Source: a bacterium
Lineage (GTDB): Bacteria > UBP18 > UBA7526
NCBI GenBank assembly: GCA_030619985.1
Contig: JAUXAI010000001.1
Span: 8,708 to 72,707 of the forward strand
Length of the DNA stretch: 64,000 nucleotides
Direction: 5' to 3'
How positions within the stretch are numbered: position 1 is the first letter of the stretch; every line of letters begins with the position of its first letter. The notes below the pieces were generated by a model. That model was given only the letters and a program-made list of their open reading frames with translations, did no database searches and was not told the origin of the DNA. Below are positions 170 through 61,732 of this stretch, piece after piece. Made by a program: the position numbers and the translations under genes.

Positions 170-1066
170 ATGCGCATACTAATTACTGGTGCCTCTGGAA
201 TGCTGGGCACAGATCTGGTAGAAACCTTATCAAAAGAGCATGAGGTAGTGGGATTAGATATTAAAACTCCACCGTTCACAGTTCACCGTTCACAGTTCAC
301 CGTTTGCGATATTACGAATGAAAAAGAGGTAATGAAAGCGGTCTGTGATGTAAAGCCAGAGGTAGTGATTCACGCTGCAGCCTATACTGATGTCGATGGC
401 TGTGAAAAGAATGAGGATTTAGCCTACAGAGTAAATGGGACTGGTACCCGGAATGTAACCTTAGCCTGTCAAAAGTGCAAAGCAGTTATGGCCTATATCA
501 GCACCGACTTTGTCTTTGATGGAGAAAAGAAAGAGCTCTATCTCGAAAGTGATAAGCCCAATCCTTTGAGCATCTATGGAAAAAGTAAATTAGAGGGAGA
601 GAGATATATTTCTTCCCTTTTAGATAAATACTTCATCATTCGCACTTCTTGGCTATTCGGTAGACATGGAAGAAACTTCGTTAATACTATATTAAAACTC
701 GCTCAGGAAAAGAAGGAACTAAGAATAGTAAATGACCAAATCGGCTCACCCACCTATACCAAAGATCTCGCCCAATCGATCAAAAAACTGATCACCGATC
801 ACTGTTCACAGAGCACCGACTTCGGTATCTACCATATTTCCAATAGTGGTTCCTGCTCTTGGTATGAATTTGCTCAAGAGATATTAAGGGTTAAGGGTTA
901 TGGGTTAAGGGTTAAAGGTATTAGTTCCGAGGAATTGGAACGGCCGGCGAGAAGGCCAAAGTTTTCTGTCTTAGATAACAGTCGCTATATCAAAACTGTG
1001 GGTAAACCATTAAGGCCGTGGCAAAAAGCCCTGAAAGAATATATTGGAAAAATTGAGGCAACATAA
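170..1066 (+). CDS. rfbD: dTDP-4-dehydrorhamnose reductase
   Basis: 298 aa with N-terminal MRILITGASGMLG Rossmann motif and RmlD-like body. It contains two in-frame tandem-repeat insertions. Confidence 0.85.
   Translation: MRILITGASGMLGTDLVETLSKEHEVVGLDIKTPPFTVHRSQFTVCDITNEKEVMKAVCDVKPEVVIHAAAYTDVDGCEKNEDLAYRVNGTGTRNVTLACQKCKAVMAYISTDFVFDGEKKELYLESDKPNPLSIYGKSKLEGERYISSLLDKYFIIRTSWLFGRHGRNFVNTILKLAQEKKELRIVNDQIGSPTYTKDLAQSIKKLITDHCSQSTDFGIYHISNSGSCSWYEFAQEILRVKGYGLRVKGISSEELERPARRPKFSVLDNSRYIKTVGKPLRPWQKALKEYIGKIEAT
272..304. repeat. Heptamer tandem array (CGTTCAC/AGTTCAC x4) inside rfbD, in frame
   Basis: ccgttcacagttca ccgttcacagttca ccgtt; it encodes FTVHRSQFTVHRSQFTV. Confidence 0.8.
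887..919. repeat. Heptamer tandem array (GGGTTAA-like x4) inside rfbD, in frame
   Basis: agggttaagggttatgggttaagggttaaaggt; it encodes RVKGYGLRVKG. Confidence 0.8.
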
Positions 1067-4552: not shown

Positions 4553-5296
4553 TTGAAGGAGTTTAAAGGTAAGTTATCCATTCTGGTTCCAGCTCATAAT
4601 GAAGGACCCCATATCTATGGTAATATCCGTGAGATTCAGAGGGTCTTCGATGAAATTGGTTGCCGGTATGAACTCATTATTATTGATGACGGCAGTAAGG
4701 ATGAGACCCATGAGAATGCTCAGAAGGCGGCAAAGGGGTTCAAGAACATTATAGTAAAGAGGATGCGCCAGAACCGGGGCAAAGGAAGAGCCTTGAAGTA
4801 TGGCTTCCGCTTCGCTAAAGGAGATCTGGTGGCCTTTCTCGATGCCGATTTAGATCTCCATCCAGAGCAGATTCAAAACCTCTTCAGGATTATGAATAAA
4901 GAGGAGGTAGATGTAGTCATTGGTTCTAAAAGGCATCCAGAATCAAAATTGAAGTATCCTTGGCATAGGAAAATTATCTCCAATGTTTATTTTTTCTTAG
5001 TCAAGATTATATTCGGTTTACCTCTCAGAGATACCCAGACGGGCATTAAACTCTTTAAATATGAGGTACTTAAGAAAATATTTCCCAAGGTACTTATTAA
5101 AAGATATGCCTTTGACTTAGAATTATTGGTCAATGCCCACCATCTGGGATACAAGATTGCAGAAGCACCCATAACCTTAAATTACCAACGCTTTATGGGA
5201 CGTATTGGTTTAAGAGCCATTTATCACACTTGGTGGGATACCATGGCCATCTACTATCGTATGTATCTCCTGAAATACTACAATGGAAAGAAATAA
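4553..5296 (+). CDS. GT2 family glycosyltransferase
   Basis: LSILVPAHNEG...IIIDDGSKDET N-terminal GT-A motifs; a TTG start is possible. Confidence 0.7.
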   Translation: MKEFKGKLSILVPAHNEGPHIYGNIREIQRVFDEIGCRYELIIIDDGSKDETHENAQKAAKGFKNIIVKRMRQNRGKGRALKYGFRFAKGDLVAFLDADLDLHPEQIQNLFRIMNKEEVDVVIGSKRHPESKLKYPWHRKIISNVYFFLVKIIFGLPLRDTQTGIKLFKYEVLKKIFPKVLIKRYAFDLELLVNAHHLGYKIAEAPITLNYQRFMGRIGLRAIYHTWWDTMAIYYRMYLLKYYNGKK

Positions 5297-6257: not shown

Positions 6258-6308
6258 ACCCCGCACCTTTAGGCAAGGGCAGAAAATGAATACAAAAAGG
6301 TGCGGGGT
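6258..6308 (+). terminator. Conserved stem-loop element, copy 1 (ACCCCGCACCTTT ... AAAGGTGCGGGGT)
   Basis: 13-bp perfect stem with a loop containing agaaaatgaata. It is near-identical to the element at 58741-58806. Confidence 0.6.
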
Positions 6309-6315
6309 GAAGGTA

Positions 6316-7839
6316 ATGATTTCTTATCCTCCCTTGAAAGGACCAGGATGTCCTTTATTGAGTCAGAACCGTCAGTTTCAATGGTTCCATAATCCTACTT
6401 ATATCTATCCCGTAGTTCCGGCCTGGGCAGCGACGATGCTTAAGAACGCGGGTTATGAGGTCATCTGGAACGACTGTATTGCAGAAAATTGGGACTATAA
6501 AAAGTTTTTGGATTTTGTCCAAAAGGAAAAGCCCGACCTCATTGCCTTTGAAACCAAAACCCCAGTAATAAAGCAGCACTGGCAAATCATCAACGATTTG
6601 AAAAGACCAATCACCAATCACCGATCACCGATCACCGTATTATTCGGTGATCACGTTACTGCTCTACCTGAGGAATCTTTCCACAATTCTCAGGTCGATT
6701 ATGTTCTGACCGGTGGTGACTATGATTTCCTCCTCCTCAACCTCTGTAACTTTTTAGCTACCGATAACCCGATTACCCGATCACCTGATCACCTGATAAC
6801 CCGATTAGAACCCGGCATCTGGTATCGAGAAAGTGGCGAAATTAAGAATTCCGGTCTTTTCCGATTAAATCATGATTTAGATTCTTTACCTTTCATTGAT
6901 CGTGATTTAACTAAATGGAAACTCTATGCTTATGAAAATGGAAATTATAAATTAACCCCCGGGACCTATATTATGGCGGGAAGAGATTGTTGGTGGCGAA
7001 AGGATGGTGGCTGTACCTTTTGCTCCTGGACCGCCCTTTATCCTACCTGGAGGGTGAGGTCGGTAGAGAATGTCTTGGATGAGATGGGCGAGCTTATTGA
7101 GAGATATAAGATTCGGGAGATAATGGATGATACCGGTACTTTTCCGGCTGGGGAGTGGCTGCGAGAGTTCTGTCAGGGGATGATTAAAAGAGGTTATAAT
7201 GAAAGGATTAATTTCGATTGCAATCTGCGTTTTGGAGCATTAACCAGTAAAGATTATAAACTGATGGCCAAGGCGGGATTCAGATTCCTCCTTTATGGGC
7301 TTGAATCGGCGAGCCAAGAAACAATTAATAGATTGAATAAGGAGATAAAGATTGCCGCCATTGAGGAGGAATTAAGAGAGGTCAAAAGGGCAAATAGAGA
7401 GATTAAAGGACATCTCGAACCCCATGTCACCTGTATGGTTGGCTATCCCTGGGAGACAAAAGAGGAGGCAGAGAAGACGATTCAGATGACAAAGGATTTG
7501 TTCAGTAAAGGCTTGATAGACACCCTTCAGGCAACCATTATGATTCCCTACCCAGGAACGGCCCTCTTTAAGGAATGCAGGAAGAATGGATGGTTAAAGA
7601 ACGAGGATTGGGATGGGTTTGATATGAGTCAGCCGGTCATGAAGACTCCTCTGAAGGATGAGGAAGTAATGCGACTCACTCAGGGCATTTATAAATCCTT
7701 TATTACCCCACGCTTCTTATTTAGGAAAATAATATCTATCAGGAATATTGATGGCTTAAAGTTTTTCTGGCGTGCTGGAAAGGCAGTTTTGGGCCATCTC
7801 CGGGACTTTATGAAAAAACAATCTAAATTTTTGACATAG
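6316..7839 (+). CDS. B12-binding-domain radical SAM protein
   Basis: N-terminal Rossmann-like B12-binding region, then a Cys cluster (CWWRKDGGCTFCSW) and a TIM-barrel region. The six-frame ORF start at 6286 lies inside the hairpin, so ATG 6316 is more likely. The CDS carries two in-frame repeat insertions. Confidence 0.65.
   Translation: MISYPPLKGPGCPLLSQNRQFQWFHNPTYIYPVVPAWAATMLKNAGYEVIWNDCIAENWDYKKFLDFVQKEKPDLIAFETKTPVIKQHWQIINDLKRPITNHRSPITVLFGDHVTALPEESFHNSQVDYVLTGGDYDFLLLNLCNFLATDNPITRSPDHLITRLEPGIWYRESGEIKNSGLFRLNHDLDSLPFIDRDLTKWKLYAYENGNYKLTPGTYIMAGRDCWWRKDGGCTFCSWTALYPTWRVRSVENVLDEMGELIERYKIREIMDDTGTFPAGEWLREFCQGMIKRGYNERINFDCNLRFGALTSKDYKLMAKAGFRFLLYGLESASQETINRLNKEIKIAAIEEELREVKRANREIKGHLEPHVTCMVGYPWETKEEAEKTIQMTKDLFSKGLIDTLQATIMIPYPGTALFKECRKNGWLKNEDWDGFDMSQPVMKTPLKDEEVMRLTQGIYKSFITPRFLFRKIISIRNIDGLKFFWRAGKAVLGHLRDFMKKQSKFLT
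6608..6637. repeat. Heptamer array CAATCAC/CGATCAC x4 in frame inside the radical SAM CDS
   Basis: caatcaccaatcaccgatcaccgatcaccg encodes ITNHRSPITV. The same CGATCAC heptamer forms the array at 50912-50939. Confidence 0.8.
6761..6808. repeat. Octamer array CCGATNAC x6 in frame inside the radical SAM CDS
   Basis: ccgataac ccgattac ccgatcac ctgatcac ctgataac ccgattag. Confidence 0.8.
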
Positions 7840-7900: not shown

Positions 7901-7994
7901 TAAAAGGACGGGAAATATACTCCATACCTAGACGCAGATATAATATCATCAGAAAATGTTATATCTGAATGCGTAGAAAAATGTGGAGAGTAAG
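7901..7994 (+). pseudogene. Duplicated internal fragment of the downstream GT2 gene (9590-10558)
   Basis: It translates to KDGKYTPYLDADIISSENVISECVEKCGE*. The intact gene has RGKYILYLDADMILSKDVISECVEKC; the two are about 75% identical at nucleotide level over roughly 80 nt. Confidence 0.7.
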
Positions 7995-9362
7995 ATGGAT
8001 ATAAAAGCACTAATTAAAGAAGGCGAGTCTGAAGCCTTAGAATTTAAAGAATCTACAGGAGAGTGGAAAGAGATAGTTTCAACTATCTCTGCTTTTGCTA
8101 ATACTAAAGGTGGTAGGATAATTATTGGAGTTTCTAAATCGGGTAAACTATTTGGTGCAGAAATTGGCAAAGATACTATTGAGCGTCTAAGCAATCAAAT
8201 CTCTCAGAATACCGACCCCAAAGTTCATCCCCGCATTACTACAGAGAAGATAAAAGGCAAATCCATAATCATTATTGAAGTAAAAGAGTCATCCGACCAT
8301 TTGATTCTTGCATTTGGTAGGCCATTCAAAAGGGTAGGCAAATCAACTGTCAAAATGTCCAAGGATGAGTATGAAAAGTTGATTTTAGAAAAGCATAGAG
8401 AGAAATTATATTTTGATTCTCAAATTTGTAAAGGTGCGAAGCTAAAAGATATCAATAAGGAAAGATTATTATGGTTTGTTAAGGAAGCAAGGGTTCATAG
8501 GGGTTTGGATGTAGAAGATATGCTTCCCACAGAAGAAATTTTAGAAAGATTAAAACTTTTAAAGGAAAGGAAGTTAACCAATGCCGCTATATTGTTATTT
8601 GGAAAAAATCCTCAGAAGTTTTTTCTTCAGACGATAATAAAAGCAATCAGATTCAAGGGGACTGATGTAACGGAAGATATGCTAGACTTTAAGACCATAG
8701 AAGGAGATATCCTGATTCAGCTTAAGAGGGCTGAAGACTTTATCTTTGAACACATTCCGAAACAGGCATGGATAGAAGAAGGTAAACTTCAAAGACAGGA
8801 AAAATGGTTATACCCGCCTAAAGCGATAAGGGAGGCTTTGGCAAACGCATTAGCGCATAGAGATTATGAGACAACATCAAGTGTTCAGGTTAGAATTTTT
8901 GATGATAGGTTAGAAATATGGAATCCAGGAGGTTTGCCATCAGGACTTACAGTGGAAAAACTAAAGAGAAAACATACTTCCATCCCTCGCAATCCTCTTA
9001 TTGCGAGAGCCTTCTTTTGGGTGAAATACGTAGAAGAAGTTGGCACAGGAACAAATAAGATTATCAAATGGTGTAAAGAGTGGGAGTTACCTGAGCCAGA
9101 ATTTGAAGATACAGGAACAAGTTTTGTATTAACTTTCCGAAAATTCTATGTGAGTGAAAGTTTATTAGAAGTATTGAATGAACGTCAGAAAAAGGCTGTA
9201 GGGTATCTTAGGGAAAAAGGCAAAATAACAAATAGAGAGTATCAAAAACTTTGCGCTGGTGTAAATAGAGAAACCATAAGAAAAGACCTAAATAATTTAA
9301 TTAATAAAAAAATTATTATTAGAAAAGGAGAAAAAAAAGGGGTTTATTACGAACTTATATGA
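7995..9362 (+). CDS. COG2865-type putative regulator/defence-associated protein (AlbA_2 Schlafen-like domain + HATPase_c_4 + C-terminal wHTH)
   Basis: N-terminal ...EFKES...region of the divergent AAA/AlbA_2 type; the central region resembles the RecG-C-terminal-like ATPase fold; the C-terminus is a winged helix. The six-frame ORF starts with GTG at 7983; ATG 7995 is preferred. Confidence 0.6.
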   Translation: MDIKALIKEGESEALEFKESTGEWKEIVSTISAFANTKGGRIIIGVSKSGKLFGAEIGKDTIERLSNQISQNTDPKVHPRITTEKIKGKSIIIIEVKESSDHLILAFGRPFKRVGKSTVKMSKDEYEKLILEKHREKLYFDSQICKGAKLKDINKERLLWFVKEARVHRGLDVEDMLPTEEILERLKLLKERKLTNAAILLFGKNPQKFFLQTIIKAIRFKGTDVTEDMLDFKTIEGDILIQLKRAEDFIFEHIPKQAWIEEGKLQRQEKWLYPPKAIREALANALAHRDYETTSSVQVRIFDDRLEIWNPGGLPSGLTVEKLKRKHTSIPRNPLIARAFFWVKYVEEVGTGTNKIIKWCKEWELPEPEFEDTGTSFVLTFRKFYVSESLLEVLNERQKKAVGYLREKGKITNREYQKLCAGVNRETIRKDLNNLINKKIIIRKGEKKGVYYELI

Positions 9363-37717: not shown

Positions 37718-40162
37718 ATGTATTTTATATTTAGAAAGGCGAAATTATTTTTTCTTTTTTGCAAGGTACACCCGGTAGTTGATTTAATATTTATCCTCCT
37801 GGTTGGATTACATATTTTTAGTTGGTTCCATGGAGACTTTTTATATATCGGAGGTGACTACCTCATTCCTCTTAATCCCATTGAAAATTTGCAGCACCTC
37901 TATACCTGGAAGACCCAGCTGGGCGGTGTTGAATCCTGGGGCTTAAATCAAATCTTAGTAAATGGGTTCTTTGCTCTCTTCCATTTTCTTGGTTTTTCCC
38001 TGCCAACCATACAGCAATTCTATATCTATTTCAGTCATATTTTAGCTGGTTTATTTATGTATTATTTAGCGTCAACCTTTGCCTCTGGTGAGAAGGATAG
38101 ACGAGCGGTGAGCCTGATAGCCGCCTTTTTCTATATGTTTAGTCCCTTTATGCTCGGCCTGGGCCAGATAAATGTCTACCTTCCCTATGTCTTCATGCCC
38201 CTGGTGCTGGCTTTCTATGTAAGAGGGCTGTCAGATAGAACAAATCAGATTAGATATGCTTTCTTTACTGCCTTAGCCTTATTAGGCTTTATCGGGGAGC
38301 TTCCTCAGTATAAAATGCTTAGTATAGCGATTGCTTTAATTCTCTTATATACCTTATTTCATATCCTTTTCCTTAGAGGAAGTATCCGGCATTGTGCTAA
38401 ATTTTTACTGATTATTATCGTCTTGGCATTCGCCTTGACTGCCTGGTTTATCCTCCCTTATTTTCGAGTCATTACCTACACCGGCCTGATCGAGACTGCC
38501 CGGGCTGCAACATCGAGGATAGGATCAGTAAGAGGCTTTGGAGACTATGGCTTTGCCACATTGAAGGAGCTTTTCAGAATATTGGGTAGCGCTGGATTCT
38601 ACTATGGGTCAACCTATTCCCGACCCTATTTCCATAATCCATTTCTAATTCTAATCAGCTATCTCATTCCTCTCTTAGCGTTTAGTTCTCTGATATTCAA
38701 ACCTAAATCCAAGAACGTTATCTTCTTCGCTACTGTTTCATTATTCTTTCTCTTTTGCGCTAAAGGCACCAATCCACCCTTTGGCTACATCTATAAATGG
38801 ATTGTAAATTATATTCCCTTTGCCAGGGTTTACAGGACTTCCTGGACTCTACTTCTGGGCGCAGTAATAGGATACGCTTTCCTCATAGGAGTTGCTACAA
38901 TAAGCATCTATAATAAGTTACGTCACCGTAAACCTTACCTGGCCAGAATTTTTATCTTAGTAGTTATCGCCGTTATTCTTACCAATGCCTGGCCATTAGT
39001 AACCGGGGCTTACCTCGAAAATCTCAATAATCCCCCTGATTATAAAGGAGTGGAAATTCCTCCATCATACTATGCGGCCAATGTCTTTTTGAATACCCAG
39101 GGCACCGAGGATTCTAAATTCCTGGTATTACCACCGAGCGCTAGTTATCTGATCACAGATTGGGGCTATCTGGGCAGTGCCCATTTGCTACCCTTTATTT
39201 TCTCAAAGCCCCTGATATACGGTTACCACACAATAACCTTGACTCAGGCCGTTACCAAGCTCGCCTATCATTCATTCATCCAAGAGGATTTTAATCAAGC
39301 CAGTAAGATCTTAGGCCTGCTCAACGTTCGCTATTTGCTCTTGGATAATAGTATCGATACCGCCAGCAAGATTATTATTGCGGAATATCCCTTAGAAAGA
39401 TATCGAGAAGGGTTGAAGTCGCAGAAAGGAATCCATTTTAAGAGAAGTTTTGGAAAGTTAGACCTCTATCGGGTTGACAATTGTTTACCCCATATCTTTG
39501 CCTCCTCTCACACTACATTAGTAGACGGGAGCAGCGAGGCTTTGGTTCCCCTGAGTAATACCAAGTATCTAAGGGAAAAACCATGCCTCCTCTTCTTAGA
39601 ACAGCTCCCTGGCTACCAGCAGAGAAAACTTATGAATAGAACAGATGTTCTAATTACTTTCAAGAAGGAAAGTCTAAAAATAAAACCAGTTACCTTTAAG
39701 AAAAAAACACCCCCTGAAGTCTCTTTTGAAAGGATTAATCCCACCAGGTATGTGGTGAAGTTGAGGAGGATAAAGGAGCCTTTCTGGTTGGTCTTTTTGG
39801 AGAGTTTTCATAAGGGGTGGAAGGCATACATGCTTCAAACTCCAAACTCTAAGCTCAAAACTCAAAATAGACGGGAATGGTCGGCGTTGGTGAGTGCTTG
39901 GAAGGATAGGGGGAGGAGGATTGAACTGAAAGAGCATTATGTAGTGAATGGGTATGCTAATGGATGGTGGATAGATCCGTCCAAAGTCAAAGAAATAGAG
40001 ATTGTGTTGGAGTATATGCCTCAAAGACTGGTTGAAGTTGGAATTCTAATATCAGGATTGACTTTTTTGGGATGTATTGGATATTTAGCGGGGACTGGAA
40101 TCAGGAGGAAACGGAGAAAGTTAGCTGATGAAAAAGTTAGCGATCGAGCGGAGAATTTCTAA
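37718..40162 (+). CDS. Large polytopic membrane protein (GT-C-like / YfhO-like) with C-terminal soluble domain
   Basis: 814 aa; N-terminal roughly 450 aa multi-TM; one C-terminal TM anchor. Confidence 0.4.
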   Translation: MYFIFRKAKLFFLFCKVHPVVDLIFILLVGLHIFSWFHGDFLYIGGDYLIPLNPIENLQHLYTWKTQLGGVESWGLNQILVNGFFALFHFLGFSLPTIQQFYIYFSHILAGLFMYYLASTFASGEKDRRAVSLIAAFFYMFSPFMLGLGQINVYLPYVFMPLVLAFYVRGLSDRTNQIRYAFFTALALLGFIGELPQYKMLSIAIALILLYTLFHILFLRGSIRHCAKFLLIIIVLAFALTAWFILPYFRVITYTGLIETARAATSRIGSVRGFGDYGFATLKELFRILGSAGFYYGSTYSRPYFHNPFLILISYLIPLLAFSSLIFKPKSKNVIFFATVSLFFLFCAKGTNPPFGYIYKWIVNYIPFARVYRTSWTLLLGAVIGYAFLIGVATISIYNKLRHRKPYLARIFILVVIAVILTNAWPLVTGAYLENLNNPPDYKGVEIPPSYYAANVFLNTQGTEDSKFLVLPPSASYLITDWGYLGSAHLLPFIFSKPLIYGYHTITLTQAVTKLAYHSFIQEDFNQASKILGLLNVRYLLLDNSIDTASKIIIAEYPLERYREGLKSQKGIHFKRSFGKLDLYRVDNCLPHIFASSHTTLVDGSSEALVPLSNTKYLREKPCLLFLEQLPGYQQRKLMNRTDVLITFKKESLKIKPVTFKKKTPPEVSFERINPTRYVVKLRRIKEPFWLVFLESFHKGWKAYMLQTPNSKLKTQNRREWSALVSAWKDRGRRIELKEHYVVNGYANGWWIDPSKVKEIEIVLEYMPQRLVEVGILISGLTFLGCIGYLAGTGIRRKRRKLADEKVSDRAENF

Positions 40163-49785: not shown

Positions 49786-50892
49786 GTGAAAATGCCAATA
49801 TTAGCTAAATTCAAACACCAGCGAACTGAAATCCTAATTTTCTCATTTTTTGGTATTCTGAGTCTAATGGCTACCCATCCTATGATCTTTAAAATGAAGA
49901 GTCATATCTACGGATATCCTGGTGATCCCTTAGGAAGTATATGGAGAATTTGGTGGTATAAATTTTCCTGGGTACATCATATTTCTTCTCGGTTTATTAT
50001 CATAATAGCCCATCCCTTTGGAGTTGATTTGAGTCAGGAAATAAGCAGTGCTCCTTTTAATTATTTAGTTTTCTTAATGGCTTTACTTAGTAATGAAATC
50101 TTTACTTATAATTTTATTCTTCTATGTGGGTTTCTACTATCAGCAATTACTATGTACTTCTTGGTTTACCACTTGACCAGAAATAGGGGAGCAAGTACTA
50201 TGGCTGGAGTGCTCTATGCCTTCTGTCCTTGGCACTTTGCTCATGCCGGGCAACATCTTTCCTTGGCTTCTATTCAATGGCTACCCCTTTACGGACTATT
50301 TCTCTTTAAACTGTTTAATAAAAGAACCTATAGAAATGCCTTTCTCTGTGCTCTGGGATTTTCCTTAGTCATTTTTACTGATTTTTCCTATGTCTTTCTA
50401 ATTTCGATTTTTACTACTGCCTTCATTGTATGGGGGTTATGGTTTACCTTGGGTCCCAACCGTAGATTCTACCCTACAAGTTCTAAGGCCTCACTTTTAA
50501 AGACAAGTATAGTAATTCTGGTAACTTTTCTCATTGCTTTGGCTATGATACTTCCTTTTACCTATTCTACTTTTAAGACCGCTCTTACGCTGCCTAAAGT
50601 AGAGTCCATGGCTATCTTAAGATACGCCAAGCCTTTTCGAGATCTTACTTCTAATTCTGCCCGGCCTTTGGGTTATCTTTTACCCTCTCAAGATAACCCA
50701 TTTTTTGGCAGGGTCACTAAAAAATTCATTAAAAGTCCCTTCTATGGTAGCCATCCTACGGAACATACCCTTTATCTGGGATGGGTGGGGATTGTGCTTT
50801 CGATTGTCGCGATAAGGGAATGGAGGAGAAAAAATAGGAAGCAGAGGATAGAGAAAAGAGGTCATCAGGTCATCAGGTCATCAGGTCATTAA
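49786..50892 (+). CDS. Polytopic membrane protein, N-terminal part of a gene apparently split by a tandem-repeat tract
   Basis: 368 aa, about 9 TM helices. It ends ...GHQVIRSSGH* inside the octamer array. Confidence 0.5.
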   Translation: MKMPILAKFKHQRTEILIFSFFGILSLMATHPMIFKMKSHIYGYPGDPLGSIWRIWWYKFSWVHHISSRFIIIIAHPFGVDLSQEISSAPFNYLVFLMALLSNEIFTYNFILLCGFLLSAITMYFLVYHLTRNRGASTMAGVLYAFCPWHFAHAGQHLSLASIQWLPLYGLFLFKLFNKRTYRNAFLCALGFSLVIFTDFSYVFLISIFTTAFIVWGLWFTLGPNRRFYPTSSKASLLKTSIVILVTFLIALAMILPFTYSTFKTALTLPKVESMAILRYAKPFRDLTSNSARPLGYLLPSQDNPFFGRVTKKFIKSPFYGSHPTEHTLYLGWVGIVLSIVAIREWRRKNRKQRIEKRGHQVIRSSGH

Positions 50893-50939
50893 GAGGAATA
50901 GACAGACAGACCGATCACCGATCACCGATCACCGATCAC
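50858..50939. repeat. Octamer array (AGGTCATC x4, 50858-50889) followed by heptamer array (CGATCAC x4, 50912-50939)
   Basis: Units that are not multiples of 3, lying at the junction of two overlapping reading frames. Confidence 0.85.
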
Positions 50940-50974
50940 GGAAAGGGATAAGCTTCTTTCTCTTTGCTGGGATT

Positions 50975-51658
50975 GTGGCTTTGCTATTTTCTCATTCCCC
51001 CTATACAGAAATTGGTCCTTTTCGAATACTCTTCCCTTCTTACTTTATGTATAGAATTGCTCCTATGTTTCGCTGTTATGCCCGATTTGGTATTGTTGTT
51101 ATGCTTTGTGTGAGTGCCTTAGCAGGGATTGGTCTTGCTTCAATTTTAGAGAAGATAAGGAGTAGTAAAAGAAGAAGAATTTTTCTTTCTGTAATTTTTT
51201 TACTTATTTTTATTGAATTTGCTCCTGCTCTGCCAGCCCCCATGGTTAATGCAGTTGATCCTCCTCCAGTCTATGAATGGCTCGCTAAACAAGAAGGCGA
51301 TTTTACTATTGCTGAGTATCCCTTAGAAGATGATCAGGAGTACTTCTTTTGGCAGAGGATCCACCAGAAGAGATTAGTCAATGGTGCTCAACCAGGAACC
51401 TACGCTGATGAGGTAAGGAAAGAGATCATTGATATCTTGAAGCCAGAAACTCCGGGTATTCTAAAATATTTAGGAACGAGGTATATCATTTTTCATCCTG
51501 ATAAGTATCTGAAGAGTGAGGATGTCCCAGTAATTGGCGAGGTTCCAGATGTAAGCAAGCAAAGGGGGCTAAAACTCATTAAGACTTTTGAAGATGCGGG
51601 AGTCTATGAGGTGGTAGTGGAGCCGATTAAGCCCAAGACGCGAATTAACGCGAACTGA
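50975..51658 (+). CDS. C-terminal part of the split membrane protein (its frame is open from 50852)
   Basis: The frame is open upstream through both repeat arrays to 50852, overlapping the first ORF by 41 nt. It continues with TM helices and then a soluble domain. Confidence 0.45.
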   Translation: MALLFSHSPYTEIGPFRILFPSYFMYRIAPMFRCYARFGIVVMLCVSALAGIGLASILEKIRSSKRRRIFLSVIFLLIFIEFAPALPAPMVNAVDPPPVYEWLAKQEGDFTIAEYPLEDDQEYFFWQRIHQKRLVNGAQPGTYADEVRKEIIDILKPETPGILKYLGTRYIIFHPDKYLKSEDVPVIGEVPDVSKQRGLKLIKTFEDAGVYEVVVEPIKPKTRINAN

Positions 51659-51860
51659 AAAGCGAGGACGCAAGATAATCGGCACGCGAATTATCGCGAA
51701 TTAAAAGCAGTTACCAAGCTATCAAGTGATTGAGCTATCGAATTGGATGGTTGGATGGTTAGCCTGTTAACCAGTTTGCTGGTTAGCCAGTTTGCCAGTT
51801 GAATTTGGGGGAGAGCAGAGAAAAGAGCTACCAAGCTATCGAGCTATCAAGTAAGGAGTA
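51644..51860. repeat. 45-nt direct-repeat copy 1 (51644-51690) plus a complex inverted oligomer-repeat region
   Basis: cgcgaactgaaaagcgaggacgcaagataatcggcacgcgaatt recurs at 52862-52905. It is followed by accaagctatcaag/gagctatcga and ccagtttg arrays. Confidence 0.75.
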
Positions 51861-51938: not shown

Positions 51939-52772
51939 ATGAGAAGGACATTAGGTTTTGTTTTAATCTTGGGTGTTTTAGTGGTAAGTGGATGCGTGAG
52001 AAGGGAACTTCTTGTTCTCCCTGAGGCACCAGAGGTAGGGGTGTTAAAGCCGGTTACCAGGCCAGGGACAGCGGCCTTCAGGGGAGGGGAAAAACTAACC
52101 TTCTTAGCTAAGTTCCGGTTTATTCCTGCTGGAGAGGTGACTATGGAAGTAAGGGAGATGAGATATAGGGGCCATGAGGTCTACAGTCCTTTAATAACTA
52201 TGAAGGCGGCTAAGTTATTTTCTTTTTTCTGTCCAGCAGAGGTAAATATCAGGTCCTATCTCGATGCCCGTACCTTAGATAGTCTACGTTATGAGGAGCA
52301 TACCATAATGGGTCGCCATACCTATGAACGCTTGACGGTCTATGACCAGAGGAATCGATTGGCGACGTATGATGCGCCAGTCTATGATAGAATGGGCAAG
52401 ACAATCAGGATTTATAAGAAGAAGGTAAGGATTCCACCCCATACCCAGGATATGTTATCTGCCTTCTATTATATTCGAACCCAGGAATTAAAAGAGGGAA
52501 AGATTCTAACCATCAATGCCAATGAGCGACACAAGAATTATAGAGTGAAGATAAAGGTCTTGAGGAAAGAGAAGGTTACTGTTCCAGCAGGAACCTTCCT
52601 CACCTGGGTGATAGAGCCGATTTCCATACAGAGATTGGATAAAGAAAAAGAAGGGGAAAAAGGAACAGGTCTTATCTATCTCAGCGCAGATGAGAGGAAG
52701 CTACCAGTCTTAATGAAAGCCAAGACAAAATTAGGCTCGGTTACTGTTCAACTAATAGACGTTAAACTTTAA
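51939..52772 (+). CDS. DUF3108-like lipoprotein
   Basis: Signal peptide with lipobox (VVSGC); beta-rich body consistent with DUF3108 family members. Confidence 0.45.
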   Translation: MRRTLGFVLILGVLVVSGCVRRELLVLPEAPEVGVLKPVTRPGTAAFRGGEKLTFLAKFRFIPAGEVTMEVREMRYRGHEVYSPLITMKAAKLFSFFCPAEVNIRSYLDARTLDSLRYEEHTIMGRHTYERLTVYDQRNRLATYDAPVYDRMGKTIRIYKKKVRIPPHTQDMLSAFYYIRTQELKEGKILTINANERHKNYRVKIKVLRKEKVTVPAGTFLTWVIEPISIQRLDKEKEGEKGTGLIYLSADERKLPVLMKAKTKLGSVTVQLIDVKL

Positions 52773-52774
52773 CG

Positions 52775-52915
52775 CGAATAATCGCGAACTGCAAAGCAAA
52801 GAACGAAACAAAGTAAACAGGACGCGAATTAACGCGAATAAAAGAGGGACGCGAATAGACGCGAACTGAAAAGCGAGGACGCAAGATAATCGGGACGCGA
52901 ATCAACGCGAATGAA
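52775..52915. repeat. ACGCGAA-type oligomer arrays including 45-nt direct-repeat copy 2
   Basis: ttaacgcgaataatcgcgaactg...gacgcgaattaacgcgaat...cgcgaactgaaaagcgaggacgcaagataatcgggacgcgaatc. Confidence 0.8.
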
Positions 52916-53306
52916 AACAGAAACAAAAATATTATATAAGGAGTTAGCTTACCAAATAGTAGGAGCTTTTTACGAAGTATATAATACTCTGGGGCCAGGT
53001 TTTAAAGAGTCCATTTACCATAACGCTTTAGCCATTGAATTTACTTTACGGAAAATATCCTTTGAAACTAATAAGAGACTCACCATCAAGTATAAAAAGC
53101 AAAAGGTTGGAATTTATGAACCAGACTTCGTTATAGATAATAAGATTCTTGTTGAAATCAAAGCTGTTCCCAGGATGCCCAGAGTTTACGAAAAGCAGTT
53201 ATATTACTATCTGAAGGGTACAGAATATAAATTGGGTTACTTAGTAAATTTTGGAGCTGATAAATTAGAAATCAAGCGTAGAATCTACGAAAGGATTCGC
53301 GTTTGA
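52911..53306 (+). CDS. GxxExxY family protein
   Basis: AYQIVGAFYEVYNTLGPGFKESIYHNAL..., the family-defining G-x2-E-x2-Y N-terminus; 131 aa. Confidence 0.75.
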   Translation: MKTETKILYKELAYQIVGAFYEVYNTLGPGFKESIYHNALAIEFTLRKISFETNKRLTIKYKKQKVGIYEPDFVIDNKILVEIKAVPRMPRVYEKQLYYYLKGTEYKLGYLVNFGADKLEIKRRIYERIRV

Positions 53307-53318
53307 AGGAGGTTTGAG

Positions 53319-53747
53319 ATGGCTTTTGTATTACTCTTTGCTTCTATATTTTTGGCAGTGGTGGGACAGTTATTGCTGAAGAAGGGGATGTGGACGGTGG
53401 GGATTGTCTATTTCCATTTCTCCCATCTCTGGTCTACCTTCCTTAAAGTCTTTTCTAACTGGTATGTTATCTTTGGATTCGTCTTTTTTGTTTTAAGTGC
53501 CCTTCTGTGGTTGGCGGTCTTATCAAGATTGGATATTAGCAAGGCCTATCCCATGGTGGCCGCGGGCTATATTCTGGTTCTTTTAGCTTCCAGGTGGGGA
53601 ATAATTGTGACTAGAGAACCAGTCTCTCCCATCAGATGGATAGGGGCCCTGGTGATTTGTTTCGGTGTTTACCTTATTTCGCGCACTGATTTCGCGCAGT
53701 TGATTAAGGACTTATCAACTTTAATCTTCTGGAGGAAGCATGGTTAA
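53319..53747 (+). CDS. Small EamA/SMR-like membrane protein (ArnE/ArnF-like undecaprenyl-phosphate-sugar flippase subunit family)
   Basis: 142 aa, 4 TM helices, GQLLLKKG motif near the N-terminus. Confidence 0.5.
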   Translation: MAFVLLFASIFLAVVGQLLLKKGMWTVGIVYFHFSHLWSTFLKVFSNWYVIFGFVFFVLSALLWLAVLSRLDISKAYPMVAAGYILVLLASRWGIIVTREPVSPIRWIGALVICFGVYLISRTDFAQLIKDLSTLIFWRKHG

Positions 53748-54819
53748 GGCGGTCATTATTGCTGGGGGGAGGGGAGAGAGGTTTTGGCCTAAGAGTAGGA
53801 TTAGAACACCGAAGCAACTCCTTCCCATAGCCTCTAAAAAGAGTATGATCTATGAGACGGTGAAGAGGATAAGCCCTTTGGTGACATCAAAGGATATTCT
53901 GATTATTGCCAGAAGAGGTTTGGGGGCAAGAATCAAGAAAGATCTTCCTAAGATCCCCACTAAGAATATTATCTCCGAGCCCTTTGGGCGGGATACTGCA
54001 GCAGCAGTCGGCTTAGGAGCAATATTAGCGGAGAAGAAAGACCCAGATAGCGTTATGGTTGTCTTACCCGCAGATCATGTAATTGGTGAGCCGAAGAAGT
54101 TTCTAAAAACTTTAAGAGTGGCCATCAAGGCTGCCCGAGATACAGATAATTTAGTGACTATGGGAATCAAACCTAACAGGCCAGAGACGGGGTATGGGTA
54201 TATAGAAATTGGTTCGCCAGTTCGCCAGTTCGCCAGTTCGCCAGTTTATGAGGTGAAGAGGTTTGCAGAAAAGCCGGATAGGAAAAAAGCATTAAAGTTT
54301 ATGAAGAGCGGGAGGTATCTCTGGAATAGTGGAATGTTTATCTGGAGAACCTCTGTTATCCTGAAAGCGATGAGAAAACATATGCCCCAACTATATAGAG
54401 GCCTTTTGGAGATTCAGGAGGCCTTGGGTACTTCTCAAGAAAAGAAAGCGATTGAAAAGGTCTACAAAAAGTTGGACAAAATATCCATAGATTATGGTAT
54501 AATGGAGAAGGCAAAAAATACATTGGTGGTGAAGGCAGATTATCTCTGGGATGATGTGGGGAACTGGCAGGCCCTGGAAAGAATCTCAGTTAAAGATAAA
54601 GAGAGGAATATTACCAAGGGAGAAGTCTCTTCTTTAGATACGAGAGATTCCATTATTCTCTGTGACAAAGGAATGGTAGGAACAATCGGTATAAAAGATT
54701 TAATCATCATCTCAACAGAAGATGCTACTTTAATCTGCCCTAAAGATAGGGCCCAGGAAGTAAAGGAACTGGTCCACAAGCTTGGTAAGAATAAGAAATT
54801 AAAGAAATACATTAAGTAA
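53740..54819 (+). CDS. manC: Mannose-1-phosphate guanylyltransferase (nucleotidyltransferase domain only)
   Basis: AVIIAGGRGERFWPKSR...PKQLLPI...GYGYIE; 359 aa. It carries an in-frame octamer repeat insertion. Confidence 0.75.
   Translation: MVKAVIIAGGRGERFWPKSRIRTPKQLLPIASKKSMIYETVKRISPLVTSKDILIIARRGLGARIKKDLPKIPTKNIISEPFGRDTAAAVGLGAILAEKKDPDSVMVVLPADHVIGEPKKFLKTLRVAIKAARDTDNLVTMGIKPNRPETGYGYIEIGSPVRQFASSPVYEVKRFAEKPDRKKALKFMKSGRYLWNSGMFIWRTSVILKAMRKHMPQLYRGLLEIQEALGTSQEKKAIEKVYKKLDKISIDYGIMEKAKNTLVVKADYLWDDVGNWQALERISVKDKERNITKGEVSSLDTRDSIILCDKGMVGTIGIKDLIIISTEDATLICPKDRAQEVKELVHKLGKNKKLKKYIK
54213..54246. repeat. Octamer array CGCCAGTT x4 in frame inside manC
   Basis: It encodes SPVRQFASSPV. 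A related CCAGTTTG array lies intergenically at 51766-51800. Confidence 0.8.
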
Positions 54820-54910
54820 GGTTCACGGTTAACGGTTTACGGTTAACCGTAAAAAAACGGTAAACGGTAAACAGCGACAAACAAGGTGAGGAGCGGGTAA
54901 ACTGTAAACT
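54820..54910. repeat. Inverted heptamer-array hairpin (CGGTTAA/CGGTTTA ... CGGTAAA)
   Basis: cacggttaacggtttacggttaaccgtaaaaaaacggtaaacggtaaacag; it contains the perfect palindrome acggttaaccgt. Confidence 0.8.
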
Positions 54911-59054: not shown

Positions 59055-59630
59055 ATGACCAAGATCATCCTGGTGCGCCATGGGGAGACGGCCTGGACTC
59101 CAGTAAATAGGATTCAAGGTTGGCTGGATATAGAGTTAAATGAGCGAGGGCTAAGACAGGCAAAAAGAATTGCAAGAGAATTAAAGAGAAAGAAGATAGA
59201 CGCCATCTATTCTAGTGAACTCTCTCGGGCTTATGAGACAGCAAAGATTATTGCCAAACCACATAAATTAAGAGTAAAGAAGGATATTAATCTCAATGAG
59301 CTTAACCAGGGAAAGTGGCAAGGGCTTCTGGTAAAAGAGGCCAGAAGAAAGTATAAGGAACTTTACCGAAGATGGGAAGAAGAACCCTTAAGCGTCAGGC
59401 CTCCTGGAGGGGAGAGCATCCTGGACCTTTACGAAAGGGCAATCCATATTTTAAGAGAGATTACCAAGAAATATCCCAAAGGGAAGGTAGTCATCGTGGG
59501 ACATAAGGTGATAAATACGGTATTAAAATGCTATTTGTTGGGAATAAATCTCTCTAATGTCTGGAAACTACTGCCTAAGGAAGCAAGCTGGGAGGAAATC
59601 AAAATTCCCCAATCAAGAGTCAGAAAATGA
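59055..59630 (+). CDS. Histidine phosphatase (phosphoglycerate-mutase superfamily), candidate glucosyl-3-phosphoglycerate phosphatase
   Basis: LVRHGET with catalytic His, about 190 aa, adjacent to gpgS. Mycobacterial GpgP belongs to this superfamily. ATG 59055 is preferred; the six-frame ORF starts at 59016. Confidence 0.55.
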   Translation: MTKIILVRHGETAWTPVNRIQGWLDIELNERGLRQAKRIARELKRKKIDAIYSSELSRAYETAKIIAKPHKLRVKKDINLNELNQGKWQGLLVKEARRKYKELYRRWEEEPLSVRPPGGESILDLYERAIHILREITKKYPKGKVVIVGHKVINTVLKCYLLGINLSNVWKLLPKEASWEEIKIPQSRVRK

Positions 59631-59672
59631 GTTAACAAGTATACAAGTTAACAAGGATACAAGTTGACAAGG
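59631..59672. repeat. Forward oligomer array (GTTAACAAG / ATACAAGTTAACAAGG) left of a four-helix-bundle gene
   Basis: gttaacaagtatacaagttaacaaggatacaagttgacaagg. Confidence 0.8.
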
Positions 59673-59682
59673 AAGGTGGAAG

Positions 59683-60057
59683 ATGGAAAGAGGTTTTGAA
59701 GGTTTAAAGGTTTGGCAATTGGGAAGGAAATTCCGCAAAAAGATTTATGAGATAAGTAGAAAGTTCCCAAAGGAAGAGATATATTGCCTAGTTCAGCAAA
59801 TTCGTAAAGCAGCAATATCCATAACTGCCAATATCACAGAAGGTCATGGTAGGTATCATTATCAGGAAAATATTCAGTTTTGTCGGGTTTCAAGAGGCTC
59901 GATAAATGAAGTCTTAGATCATCTATATACTGCTATAGACGAAAAATATATTGTTGAAAAAGAGTTCCAGCAATTATACTCTCAGGGCAGAGAAGTAGAA
60001 AAAGTGCTCAACGGTTACATCGGTTACCTTCACAAAAGACTCAGCGAGAAAAGTTAA
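59683..60057 (+). CDS. Four-helix-bundle protein (TIGR02436; '23S rRNA intervening-sequence protein' family)
   Basis: 124 aa ...LKVWQLGRKFRKKIYEISRKFPKEE...ITANITEGHGRYHYQENIQFCRVSRGSINEVLDHL... Confidence 0.8.
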   Translation: MERGFEGLKVWQLGRKFRKKIYEISRKFPKEEIYCLVQQIRKAAISITANITEGHGRYHYQENIQFCRVSRGSINEVLDHLYTAIDEKYIVEKEFQQLYSQGREVEKVLNGYIGYLHKRLSEKS

Positions 60058-60110: not shown

Positions 60111-61331
60111 ATGTCTAAACCAAGAATTGCTATCGTTCATTATTCCTCTCCTCCAGTAATCGGAGGGGTGGAGTTCATCTTGGAGGCTCATGCCAGAGAG
60201 ATGCTCAAGCATGGCTATAAGGTGAAGGTTGTTGCAGGGAGAGGGGAGAAATTTCATAAGAAGATCCCGATTGTTATTATTCCCGAGGCGGATTCTCTCT
60301 CAAAGACGAATAAGAGAATAGATGCGGAACTTGAGAAGAATCTTGTGAGTGCTAAATTTCATCAATTAACAGATAGAATCTACGGGAAACTAACTCGAGA
60401 GTTTAAAAATGTCGATCTTGTCATCATCCATAATGTCCTGACCATGCACTTCAACCTCCCCCTTACTGCTGCTTTAGAGAGATATATTAGAGAACATAAG
60501 AAGAAAAAGTACATCGCCTGGTGCCACGATGCCACCTTCAAGGACCCGGTCTATAAGAAGAAGGCCAAGAATAAATACCCCTGGAATGTGATCTCCAAGC
60601 CCATTCCAAAAGTAAGGTATGTTGCCATCTCTTGTGAGCGCCAGAAGCAGCTCTCTCACCTCTTCCGAGTCAATCCCAAGAAGATAACCGTGGTTCCTGA
60701 CGGAATCGATCATAAAAGCTTCTTAGATTTAAATGGGGATGCCCTGGAAGTCTTCAAGAGGTTTAATCTCTTTAATCAGGATCTGGTTATGCTTCTGCCC
60801 ACCAGGATTGTGAAAAGAAAAAATCTGGAACTGGCAATAAAGATCACTAAGGAATTGAATAAGATACTCAAGGCTGTTTTAATTATTACTGGGCCTCCTG
60901 ATCCCCATAATATCGACTCTATGAGGTATTATCGCTCTCTGAAAGACTTAAGGAATAAATCCCGGATGAAGAGGAAGGTCATCTTTCTCTATGAGGAGGG
61001 AATAAAGGTAGGATATTCTATGCTGAGGAGCCTCTATCTATTATGTGATATGCTCCTATTTCCCAGTGCCCAGGAAGGCTTCGGCATCCCCCTATTGGAA
61101 TCTGGATTGGTTAACCTTCCCATCGCTTGTGCCAACATCCCTCCCTTGAAGGAAGTGGGAGAGAAAGACGTTCACTATCTTGACTTAAAGAAGAACCCCA
61201 GAGAACTTGCCTCAGGGATAATTAAGTATTACCAAAGACAGCCCACTATCCCTATGTTCAAGAAGGTATTGAGGAACTATACCTGGGAATCCATCTTCAC
61301 GCAAAAGATAGAACCATTGTTAAAGGGGTGA
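60111..61331 (+). CDS. GT4 family glycosyltransferase (GT-B)
   Basis: N-terminal IAIVHYSSPPVIGGVEFIL; C-terminal ...FPSAQEGFGIPLLESGLVNLPIAC (the E-x7-E region). Confidence 0.65.
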   Translation: MSKPRIAIVHYSSPPVIGGVEFILEAHAREMLKHGYKVKVVAGRGEKFHKKIPIVIIPEADSLSKTNKRIDAELEKNLVSAKFHQLTDRIYGKLTREFKNVDLVIIHNVLTMHFNLPLTAALERYIREHKKKKYIAWCHDATFKDPVYKKKAKNKYPWNVISKPIPKVRYVAISCERQKQLSHLFRVNPKKITVVPDGIDHKSFLDLNGDALEVFKRFNLFNQDLVMLLPTRIVKRKNLELAIKITKELNKILKAVLIITGPPDPHNIDSMRYYRSLKDLRNKSRMKRKVIFLYEEGIKVGYSMLRSLYLLCDMLLFPSAQEGFGIPLLESGLVNLPIACANIPPLKEVGEKDVHYLDLKKNPRELASGIIKYYQRQPTIPMFKKVLRNYTWESIFTQKIEPLLKG

Positions 61332-61362
61332 CAGGGGTGGCAAGGGTGACAGGGGTAACAGG
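61322..61362. repeat. Forward nonamer-like array (GTGACAGGG/GTGGCAAGG/GTAACAGGG) left of the second four-helix-bundle gene
   Basis: ggggtgacaggggtggcaagggtgacaggggtaacaggg. Confidence 0.8.
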
Positions 61363-61363
61363 G

Positions 61364-61732
61364 ATGAAAAGTAAAAGAGAGCCCGGCTATAAGAGATTAA
61401 TTGTCTGGCAGAATACCTATAAACTGCGCAAATTAATCTATAAGATAACCGCTCACTTCCCAAGAAGTGAAATGCGACGGGTCAGTCATATGAGAGATAG
61501 TGCCCGCTCAGCAAAGCAGAATATCCAAGAGGGTTATAAGCGTGCCTCTCGTGGAATATATATTCACTTTTTAACCATTTCTCAGGGCTCTTTAGGAGAA
61601 TTGAAGGGCGATGTAGAAGATTCTTTTGAAGATGGATTGATGAGTAAGGAAGAATATGAAGAAGTAGATGCTTTAATCTGCAAAACCGATTATTTATTTA
61701 CTCGCCTGATCAATTCATTAAGGAAGAAATAA
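61364..61732 (+). CDS. Four-helix-bundle protein (TIGR02436 family)
   Basis: MKSKREPGYKRLIVWQNTYKLRKLIYKITAHFPRSE...AKQNIQEGYKRASRGIYIHFLTISQGSLGEL...; ATG 61364 is preferred over the six-frame ORF start at 61328 inside the repeat. Confidence 0.8.
   Translation: MKSKREPGYKRLIVWQNTYKLRKLIYKITAHFPRSEMRRVSHMRDSARSAKQNIQEGYKRASRGIYIHFLTISQGSLGELKGDVEDSFEDGLMSKEEYEEVDALICKTDYLFTRLINSLRKK

Follow-up and report, generated by a model that had tools for sequence, protein, structure and literature searches.

A predicted GT-C glycosyltransferase gene split at an octamer array in an uncultured UBP18-related bacterium, consistent with slippage by one repeat unit

Background

Phase variation by simple sequence repeats (SSRs) whose units are not multiples of three is known from host-adapted pathogens, in which a tract within a glycan gene (e.g., pglA and pglE of Neisseria, or lipooligosaccharide and capsule genes of Haemophilus and Campylobacter) toggles between a full-length and a truncated product by a single unit, with slipped-strand mispairing as the likely mechanism (PMC4235727, PMC2651432). 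Tracts that are 'mutable' as a reflection of genome composition have been distinguished from 'hypermutable' tracts selected for switching (PMC4235727), and the known heptamer tracts within open reading frames (ORFs) of H. influenzae have 8–14 units (PMC2651432). Here, a comparable arrangement is described from the window, i.e., the whole stretch of 64,000 nucleotides (nt) of contig JAUXAI010000001.1 that was analysed, which belongs to an uncultured bacterium related to 'UBP18'/Omnitrophota metagenome-assembled genomes (MAGs). Two overlapping reading frames meet in an octamer array and are, by homology and predicted fold, the halves of one membrane glycosyltransferase gene located in a large glycan-synthesis cluster with RmlD, ManC, PMM, and GT2, GT4, and GT-C genes. 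The assembly does contain the split, and our reading, at a probability of roughly 55%, is that a single gene was recently frameshifted by slippage of one unit, that its tract is mutable through genome composition, and that no evolved switch is involved. The locus shares with the SSR systems the non-triplet tract in a glycan gene and the toggling by one unit, but its tract has four units, is of background length with no locus-specific expansion, lies in the middle of the gene in a predicted cytoplasmic loop, and comes from an uncultured, environmental organism.

Heptamer arrays that are dispersed over whole genomes are a second point of comparison. The GGGAATC arrays of Xanthomonas and the GGGGAYT arrays of Nostoc are numerous and prefer about four units, and a role in phase variation was considered improbable for them (PMC4692102); the short tandemly repeated repetitive (STRR) heptamers of cyanobacteria and the TAACTGA repeats of Beggiatoaceae (PMC4679880) are similar cases. 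The arrays of the window lineage are likewise many, dispersed, and mostly of about four units, but are built from many different 7- and 8-nt units, show no G-tract bias, and occur frequently in frame within genes, including those of conserved enzymes.

The palindromic elements of Rickettsia (Ogata et al. 2000) are said to be inserted in frame in protein genes and to be palindromic and of fixed length. They are comparable to the cassette of the present locus as short dispersed DNA modules tolerated as translated insertions in permissive loops, whereas the cassette consists of tandem arrays without a significant fold, and the composite module described below was found within one protein family only. 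Tandem repeats within the ORFs of Borgs reportedly have units divisible by three and never shift the frame; the arrays of the window, in contrast, cycle through all three codon phases, and a change by one unit is a frameshift because the units are 7 or 8 nt long. The fast-evolving perfect repeats in Borg ORFs encode disordered, hydrophilic loops (PMC9879509), which resembles the situation described below.

One gene in two reading frames

An upstream ORF and a downstream open frame (Table 1) overlapping by 41 nt, with the split exactly at a heptamer/octamer repeat tract, had been proposed from the sequence alone; the coordinates were reproduced by a reading-frame check, and the split was confirmed to lie in the octamer tract. 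The true start of the upstream ORF is probably ATG 49792, matching the database protein P0008 (366 amino acids (aa)), which is 100% identical to the N-terminal fragment of the window and represents the window's own fragment in the database, where its source contig measures 73,271 bp. The downstream frame is free of internal stops over its 268 codons and encodes the last three predicted transmembrane helices as well as the C-terminal soluble domain. A credible start codon is missing from this frame: GTG 50975, which comes first, is located inside a transmembrane helix, and no Shine-Dalgarno-like sequence was found at a usable distance from it.

Homologues were searched using the fused product obtained by adding 8 nt (+8) to the octamer array, which yielded 231 relatives. 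The closest ~45 of these are single proteins of 580–690 aa from Omnitrophota-like MAGs, cover 91–99% of the fused query, and carry weak YfhO (PF09586) or DUF6311 (PF19830) annotations. The alignment of homologues (A1) is continuous across the junction. Homologues occurring naturally as two genes, which the sequence-only reading had named as evidence against a single gene, were looked for, and none was present among the homologues examined; two natural genes were consequently ruled out, as all homologues are single chains.

The expectation that both ORFs stem from a single gene, and that their fusion gives a polytopic protein of ~620 aa with one coherent fold, agreed with the AlphaFold2 model of the fused protein computed on the homologue alignment, which is a full-length GT-C fold (predicted TM-score (pTM) 0.75). 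Near the junction, a longer stretch of low confidence is seen only at residues 362–382, i.e., the cassette, between helices 333–365 and 381–405, and the cassette peptide is accordingly modelled as a disordered loop. This loop is probably on the cytoplasmic side, because three predicted transmembrane helices and the C-terminal domain follow it and the residues RRKNRKQR flank it (model and positive-inside rule). Foldseek searches against the PDB returned full-length matches to the GT-C enzymes STT3, DPY19, AglB, ArnT, PglB, and AftA (best match STT3 8pn9_A, E = 2e-8; TM-scores ~0.45–0.55; alignments of 600–790 columns). Residue D47 in the motif YGxxGD of the first extracytoplasmic loop is conserved at ≥90% in alignment A1, in which further residues of the N-terminal part are nearly invariant as well, and we infer a catalytic role for D47.

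Neither the two halves nor the fused protein reached a family threshold in Pfam or NCBIfam. Among the aligned relatives, 8 of 31 had weak Pfam YfhO matches (E down to 6e-9), and precomputed PF09586/PF19830 hits were available for many homologues. Judged by its modelled fold, the gene encodes one ~620-aa GT-C-fold membrane glycosyltransferase of the YfhO/DUF6311 type. YfhO, the GT-C enzyme responsible for the glycosylation of lipoteichoic acid in Bacillus and Listeria (PMC5836110), is alike in size, in the GT-C fold, and in combining a polytopic N-terminal domain with a C-terminal extracytoplasmic domain, whereas the window protein stays below the family thresholds and the cell envelope of the organism is different. 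A paralogue of the split gene was not present elsewhere in the 64-kb window.

Repeat cassette at the junction and in silico restoration of the frame

Arrays were called with Tandem Repeats Finder (TRF), which recovered the two arrays noticed earlier at the junction, an octamer array followed by a heptamer array, both of them perfect. The first is an uninterrupted non-triplet tandem array within the coding sequence, and a perfect period-8 run of 31 nt is not expected by chance in 64 kb. Since 8 is not divisible by three, all three frames read it as cyclic permutations of GHQVIRSS, in line with the repeat peptide previously noted in both frames. Frame 1 is closed by the TAA with which the adjoining spacer TAAGAGGAATAGACAGACAG begins, and would meet a further stop (TAG) at 50899; in the correct frame, the spacer reads (I)KRNRQT. 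The unit of the heptamer array, ACCGATC, also forms an in-frame array in the radical-SAM gene of the window (6606–6637). For the cassette, there was no Rfam match, no stable structure, and no known frameshift signal; its minimum free energy of −27.9 kcal/mol (z = −1.42 versus shuffles) did not support a palindromic or hairpin structure.

Every variant from −3 to +3 units was built in silico for both the octamer and the heptamer array. Gain of one octamer (+8 nt) led to a product of 626 aa and loss of two octamers to one of 618 aa, and paired changes (e.g., loss of one octamer with gain of one heptamer) restored the frame as well, all restored products being 618–626 aa long. With changes in the heptamer array alone, translation always ended at codon 368, because the frame-1 stops at 50890 and 50899 lie upstream of this array. 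The sequence-only reading had considered two single-unit changes capable of joining the frames: the gain of one octamer proved to be so, whereas the loss of one heptamer is ruled out by the two preceding stops.

Comparison with related loci

In all close relatives, the loop, which is bounded by a helix ending in REWRRKNR and a helix starting with SFFLFAG, is hypervariable and resembles translated short repeats (SGYQVIRLSG, RSPITDHRS, KLVNKLTSRQV, QVRKWESEQV). At the DNA level, each relative has its own mosaic of 7- and 8-nt arrays at this position, always in frame. One such locus, L001, encodes P0018, a protein 61% identical to that of the window, with neighbouring genes of 82–84% nucleotide identity. 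Its cassette is homologous and in frame and consists of an identical left part, 4.9 (five slightly degenerate) octamer units, the spacer (18/20 bases identical), and a heptamer array. The octamer count differs between the species (four units in the window, five in L001), and the pairwise alignment of the two contains a single 8-nt gap, in the window, which makes the window allele the minus-one-unit version of an in-frame cassette. The loop of the +8 variant has 43 aa, the same length as the loop of P0018.

Identity to L001 is 91.8% in the cassette (101/110) as compared to 66.7% and 76.1% in the flanks (p = 2e-7). While both window arrays are perfect (100%), those of L001 reach 90% and 80%, which suggests recent homogenization in the window lineage. 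Relative to P0001, the C-terminal half of the window protein is 83% identical and the N-terminal half 85%, i.e., the C-terminal half shows no decay; for this reason, the break would be recent, or reversible, or not real. A same-species sequence was not found in the protein collection (the P0008 cluster has one member), and a scan of metagenome contigs for the exact cassette gave 0 matches. In two sister pairs (species with two assemblies each), the loops were identical within each pair.

Proteins of the family also share the loop in mosaic form. P0001 and P0003 (alignment A1; L002) are 90–100% identical from approximately residue 290 through the loop, the peptide of which is identical in both, and 30–60% identical in the N-terminal 290 residues; a similar mosaic pattern is seen between the window and P0018, and the YfhO-like family thus seems, from these alignments, to exchange modules. 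In different genomes, two distinct loops of the YfhO-like family hold a composite module, (GGTTATCN)~4 – GGTGAAAAGAAAR – (ACCGATC)~4 (Table 1), which was not found outside this family. When the cassette module was searched for as a peptide, all matches were short spurious ORFs spanning heptamer arrays of a similar kind, chiefly from Burkholderia, and carried no information on its distribution. The module looks as if it had been copied or were mobile. At L085 (contig JABUBM010006790.1, 1501–2495), an unrelated membrane protein contributes its first 110 aa, which are followed by a (AACTGGCA)n array and a YfhO-like C-terminal half; the junction is out of frame, and homology to the window starts at the position corresponding to 50943, four bases past the end of the cassette. 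This junction is either a chimeric assembly or a recombination at the array. A second split at the other variable loop, considered for P0036 in L067, was dismissed, as the gene is intact in one frame and a late start had been called.

Arrays of 7 and 8 nt in the lineage

The implied uniqueness of the tract was not borne out. Dozens of 7- and 8-nt arrays were detected by TRF in the 64-kb window, mostly in intergenic regions and several in frame within intact genes (Table 1). Such arrays are dense in the window and in its close relatives L001–L005 and L008 (MAGs labelled 'bacterium', one of them UBP18_UBA7526) and nearly absent from ~50 other Omnitrophota loci carrying the same gene family. A census of arrays with periods of 7 or 8 was performed on the window and 14 close loci (L001–L005, L008, L067–L072, L085, L113) and comprised 70 arrays with a median of 4.4 copies and 32 nt; 66 of them have 3.4–5.9 copies, a range whose lower bound, though not its upper bound, is imposed by the detection threshold. 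Because this size range is narrow, a length-limited process is suggested instead of open-ended slippage. Perfect arrays account for 15 of the 70, among them both arrays at the split gene, so that the tract of the split gene corresponds to the background in length and is above average in purity. Approximately 50 arrays across the 15 loci are intragenic, and the sole gene truly broken at an array is the split GT-C gene. OFF states are rare, the ~40 close homologues and the other intragenic arrays being in frame.

Orthologues of the ManC-like nucleotidyltransferase from five genomes carry an in-frame array at the same codon position, directly after ETGYGYIEIG. Three of the genomes have an 8-nt unit of the GTTCGCCA type, and the other two have a 7-nt unit (GGTTCAC, GGTTTAC), with the length of the insert and the frame being kept, a pattern of concerted evolution with a change in unit length. 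Between orthologues of the radical-SAM gene, one array is unchanged and the other site holds differing arrays: at this first array site, L001 (1346–1420) has the heptamer AACTCCG flanking a palindrome (CTCCCTCGGGGACCTCGAGTCCCCTCGGG), and the window (6606–6637) has ACCRATC ×4.6. Small dispersed repeats are nested in cyanobacterial heptamer arrays, of which the arrangement in L001 is reminiscent. From the arrays of the ManC-like and radical-SAM genes, slippage or homogenization is concluded to be ongoing, with selection removing out-of-frame products. In the TTAAGGG array of RmlD, one unit deviates to TTATGGG at the very position at which an unaltered unit would create an in-frame TAA.

A different repeat family (10-mers of the ACGCGAAYTRA type) is located at the 3' ends of genes, namely at 51640–51703 and, with a period of 73 nt, at 52772–52917 in the window as well as at 4851–4917 in L002. 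The C-terminal ends of the split gene product (KTRINAN) and of P0001 (KTRIDAN) are encoded by this family.

Table 1. Coordinates of the split gene, its junction cassette, and array-bearing features in the window and in related loci
Feature	Location	Strand	Details
Upstream ORF	49786..50892	+	Frame mod 3 = 1; N-terminal 368 codons of the predicted YfhO/DUF6311-like GT-C membrane glycosyltransferase; TAA at 50890–50892
Downstream open frame	50852..51658	+	Frame mod 3 = 2, +1 versus upstream ORF; C-terminal 268 codons of the same gene
Cassette, left part (AGCAGAGGATAGAGAAAAG)	50840..50858	+	Non-repetitive; identical in the L001 cassette
Octamer array AGGTCATC ×3.9	50859..50889	+	TRF, 100% matches; three perfect units and AGGTCAT; frame lost here
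Spacer TAAGAGGAATAGACAGACAG	50890..50909	+	18/20 bases identical in L001
Heptamer array ACCGATC ×4.3	50910..50939	+	TRF, 100% matches; downstream frame reads DRSPITDHRS
Unique flanks of the junction tract			Anchors AGAGAAAAG and GGAAAGGGATAAGC; spacing of 81 nt in the window
RmlD	170–1066		Three in-frame arrays (270–304, 790–819, 884–919), heptameric and translated; Pfam E = 1e-101
B12/radical-SAM	6286–7839		Two arrays, one with ACCGATC unit
GT-C gene	37718–40162		One array
ManC-like nucleotidyltransferase	53740–54819		One perfect octamer array (54212–54246)
ManC-like array, window	54212–54246
ManC-like array, L003	4212–4242
ManC-like array, L004	10918–10949
ManC-like array, L068	5281–5319
ManC-like array, L071	7762–7793
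Composite module, L008	6665–6741
Composite module, L001	3650–3700
Composite module, L067	1447–1518
Composite module, L069	958–1030

Interpretation of the frameshift

According to the reading that we prefer, the lineage fills the cytoplasmic loop of this enzyme with translated cassettes of 7- and 8-nt tandem arrays, and replication slippage or unequal exchange within the octamer array would have removed one 8-nt unit. Owing to the −8 shift, translation would end at the TAA just past the array, leaving a probably inactive 368-aa fragment without the C-terminal domain and the three transmembrane helices that precede it. Regaining a unit could revert the allele, and occasional ON/OFF heterogeneity is plausible without being the purpose of the tract. 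We infer slippage as the cause, the recency of the event, and the status of the frameshift as a by-product from the comparisons given above. Phase variation is a possible, though unsupported, reading of the locus: the facts fit slipped-strand loss of a unit without demonstrating an evolved switch.

Several points weigh against this reading. The tract is free of mismatches, and surface-glycan synthesis, to which the gene belongs, is a functional class in which contingency loci are typical. At least three units of a 5-nt repeat can be hypermutable (PMC4235727, Table 1), and, by analogy, four octamers might switch fast. The intact downstream frame is also expected of a reversible switch, and the single assembly is compatible with a fixed dead allele as well as with one state of a switching population. 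Finally, the assembler may have chosen between co-existing variants or made an error at the repeat.

The foremost alternative is an evolved contingency locus, in which the octamer tract would be kept for high-frequency ON/OFF slippage that varies a surface glycan, and the assembly would represent the OFF phase; we regard this as possible but unlikely. A perfect non-triplet tract within an ORF, the restoration of a 626-aa GT-C protein by a single additional unit, the in-frame state of L001 with n+1 units, the intact downstream half, and the location in a glycan cluster would all be expected of such a locus. Phase-variable glycosyltransferases are well known (pglA/pglE, Neisseria; PMC4235727), heptanucleotide SSRs within ORFs of H. 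influenzae have been put forward as switches (PMC2651432), and long repeat units are mutable at few copies (PMC4235727, Table 1). The purity of both arrays at the locus, compared to 15 of 70 overall, points in the same direction, whereas tract length does not exceed the genome-wide background (median 4.4 copies), and like arrays are present in cytoplasmic enzymes that are not meant to switch (RmlD, ManC-like, radical SAM). Moreover, all other close homologues are ON, the loops are identical in both species with two assemblies, and decay instead of maintenance is seen in the orthologous arrays of L001 (90% and 80% matches). The position of the tract argues against a switch, too: it lies 59% into the ORF, at codon 358 of 626, and thus away from the 5' end, and the peptide that it encodes is in a predicted cytoplasmic loop.

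A broader view of the arrays is put forward tentatively and considered doubtful by us. The ~32-nt non-triplet arrays might be a genome-wide homogenizing class that resides in permissive loops and acts as hotspots of frameshift and recombination, which would result in lineage-specific toggling or reshuffling of surface-glycan enzymes, with the split GT-C gene as one of its visible states. The grounds for it are the cassette common to divergent genes, the modular mosaics of N- and C-terminal parts, and the junction of L085 at an array.

An assembly or consensus artefact would imply that the true tract has five units and is in frame, and that the assembler lost 8 nt or merged co-existing strains at the repeat. 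The window is part of a metagenome-assembled contig, identical units recur in the genome (e.g., ACCGATC at 6606 and 50910), the loop of the +8 variant has exactly the length of that of P0018, and the junction in L085 between two unrelated genes coincides with an array, which is what a chimeric assembly would produce. However, collapse of the repeat is not expected, because the cassette of only 81 nt and the octamer array of 31 nt are shorter than usual reads and final k-mers. In addition, 8-nt indels are rare on short-read platforms, and the window has at least seven further intragenic arrays, none of which breaks a gene. We consider an artefact improbable.

A functional split, with halves that are made separately and assemble, or recoding by a +1 ribosomal shift within the repeat, is very improbable: both frames are open through the array with their 41-nt overlap and the downstream half is fully conserved, but GTG 50975 lies inside a transmembrane helix and is not preceded by a suitably spaced Shine-Dalgarno-like sequence, naturally split homologues are absent, and neither a frameshift signal of a known type nor an Rfam family or a stable structure is present in the cassette (z = −1.4).

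With few exceptions, the contingency loci known so far are those of host-adapted pathogens. Were both tract lengths to occur in one population, the gene would be a rare case of a repeat-driven ON/OFF glycan enzyme in a free-living, uncultured bacterium of a candidate phylum. Even if the frameshift is an accident, conserved enzymes of this lineage tolerate translated 7- and 8-nt arrays and offer a natural setting in which to examine how mutable intragenic repeats are kept in check by selection. The lineage-wide occurrence of translated non-triplet arrays is more unusual than the split itself. For annotation, it follows as a warning that genes split at 7- or 8-nt arrays in such MAGs are single genes.

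Further observations in the gene neighbourhood

Other places at which a gene seemed to be split at an array were resolved as follows. The ORFs 60111–61331 and 61328–61732 are a separate GT4 gene and PF05635 gene, and the positions flagged at 54820 and 59630 in the window and at 2261 in L067 are ordinary gene boundaries with arrays in the spacer.

Two PF05635 genes ('23S rRNA intervening sequence protein', with a weak bAvd-like match) are located between glycosyltransferase genes at 59683–60054 and 61328–61729. Each is preceded by an array, namely the 8-mer AGTTAACA at 59630–59673 and the 9-mer AGGGGTGAC ×4.9 at 61324–61367, respectively. A gene with Schlafen AlbA_2, HATPase_c_4, and HTH domains (7983–9362) lies between the radical-SAM and GT2 genes of the glycan cluster; in L001, the radical-SAM gene is followed by a YfhO-like gene in place of this arrangement.

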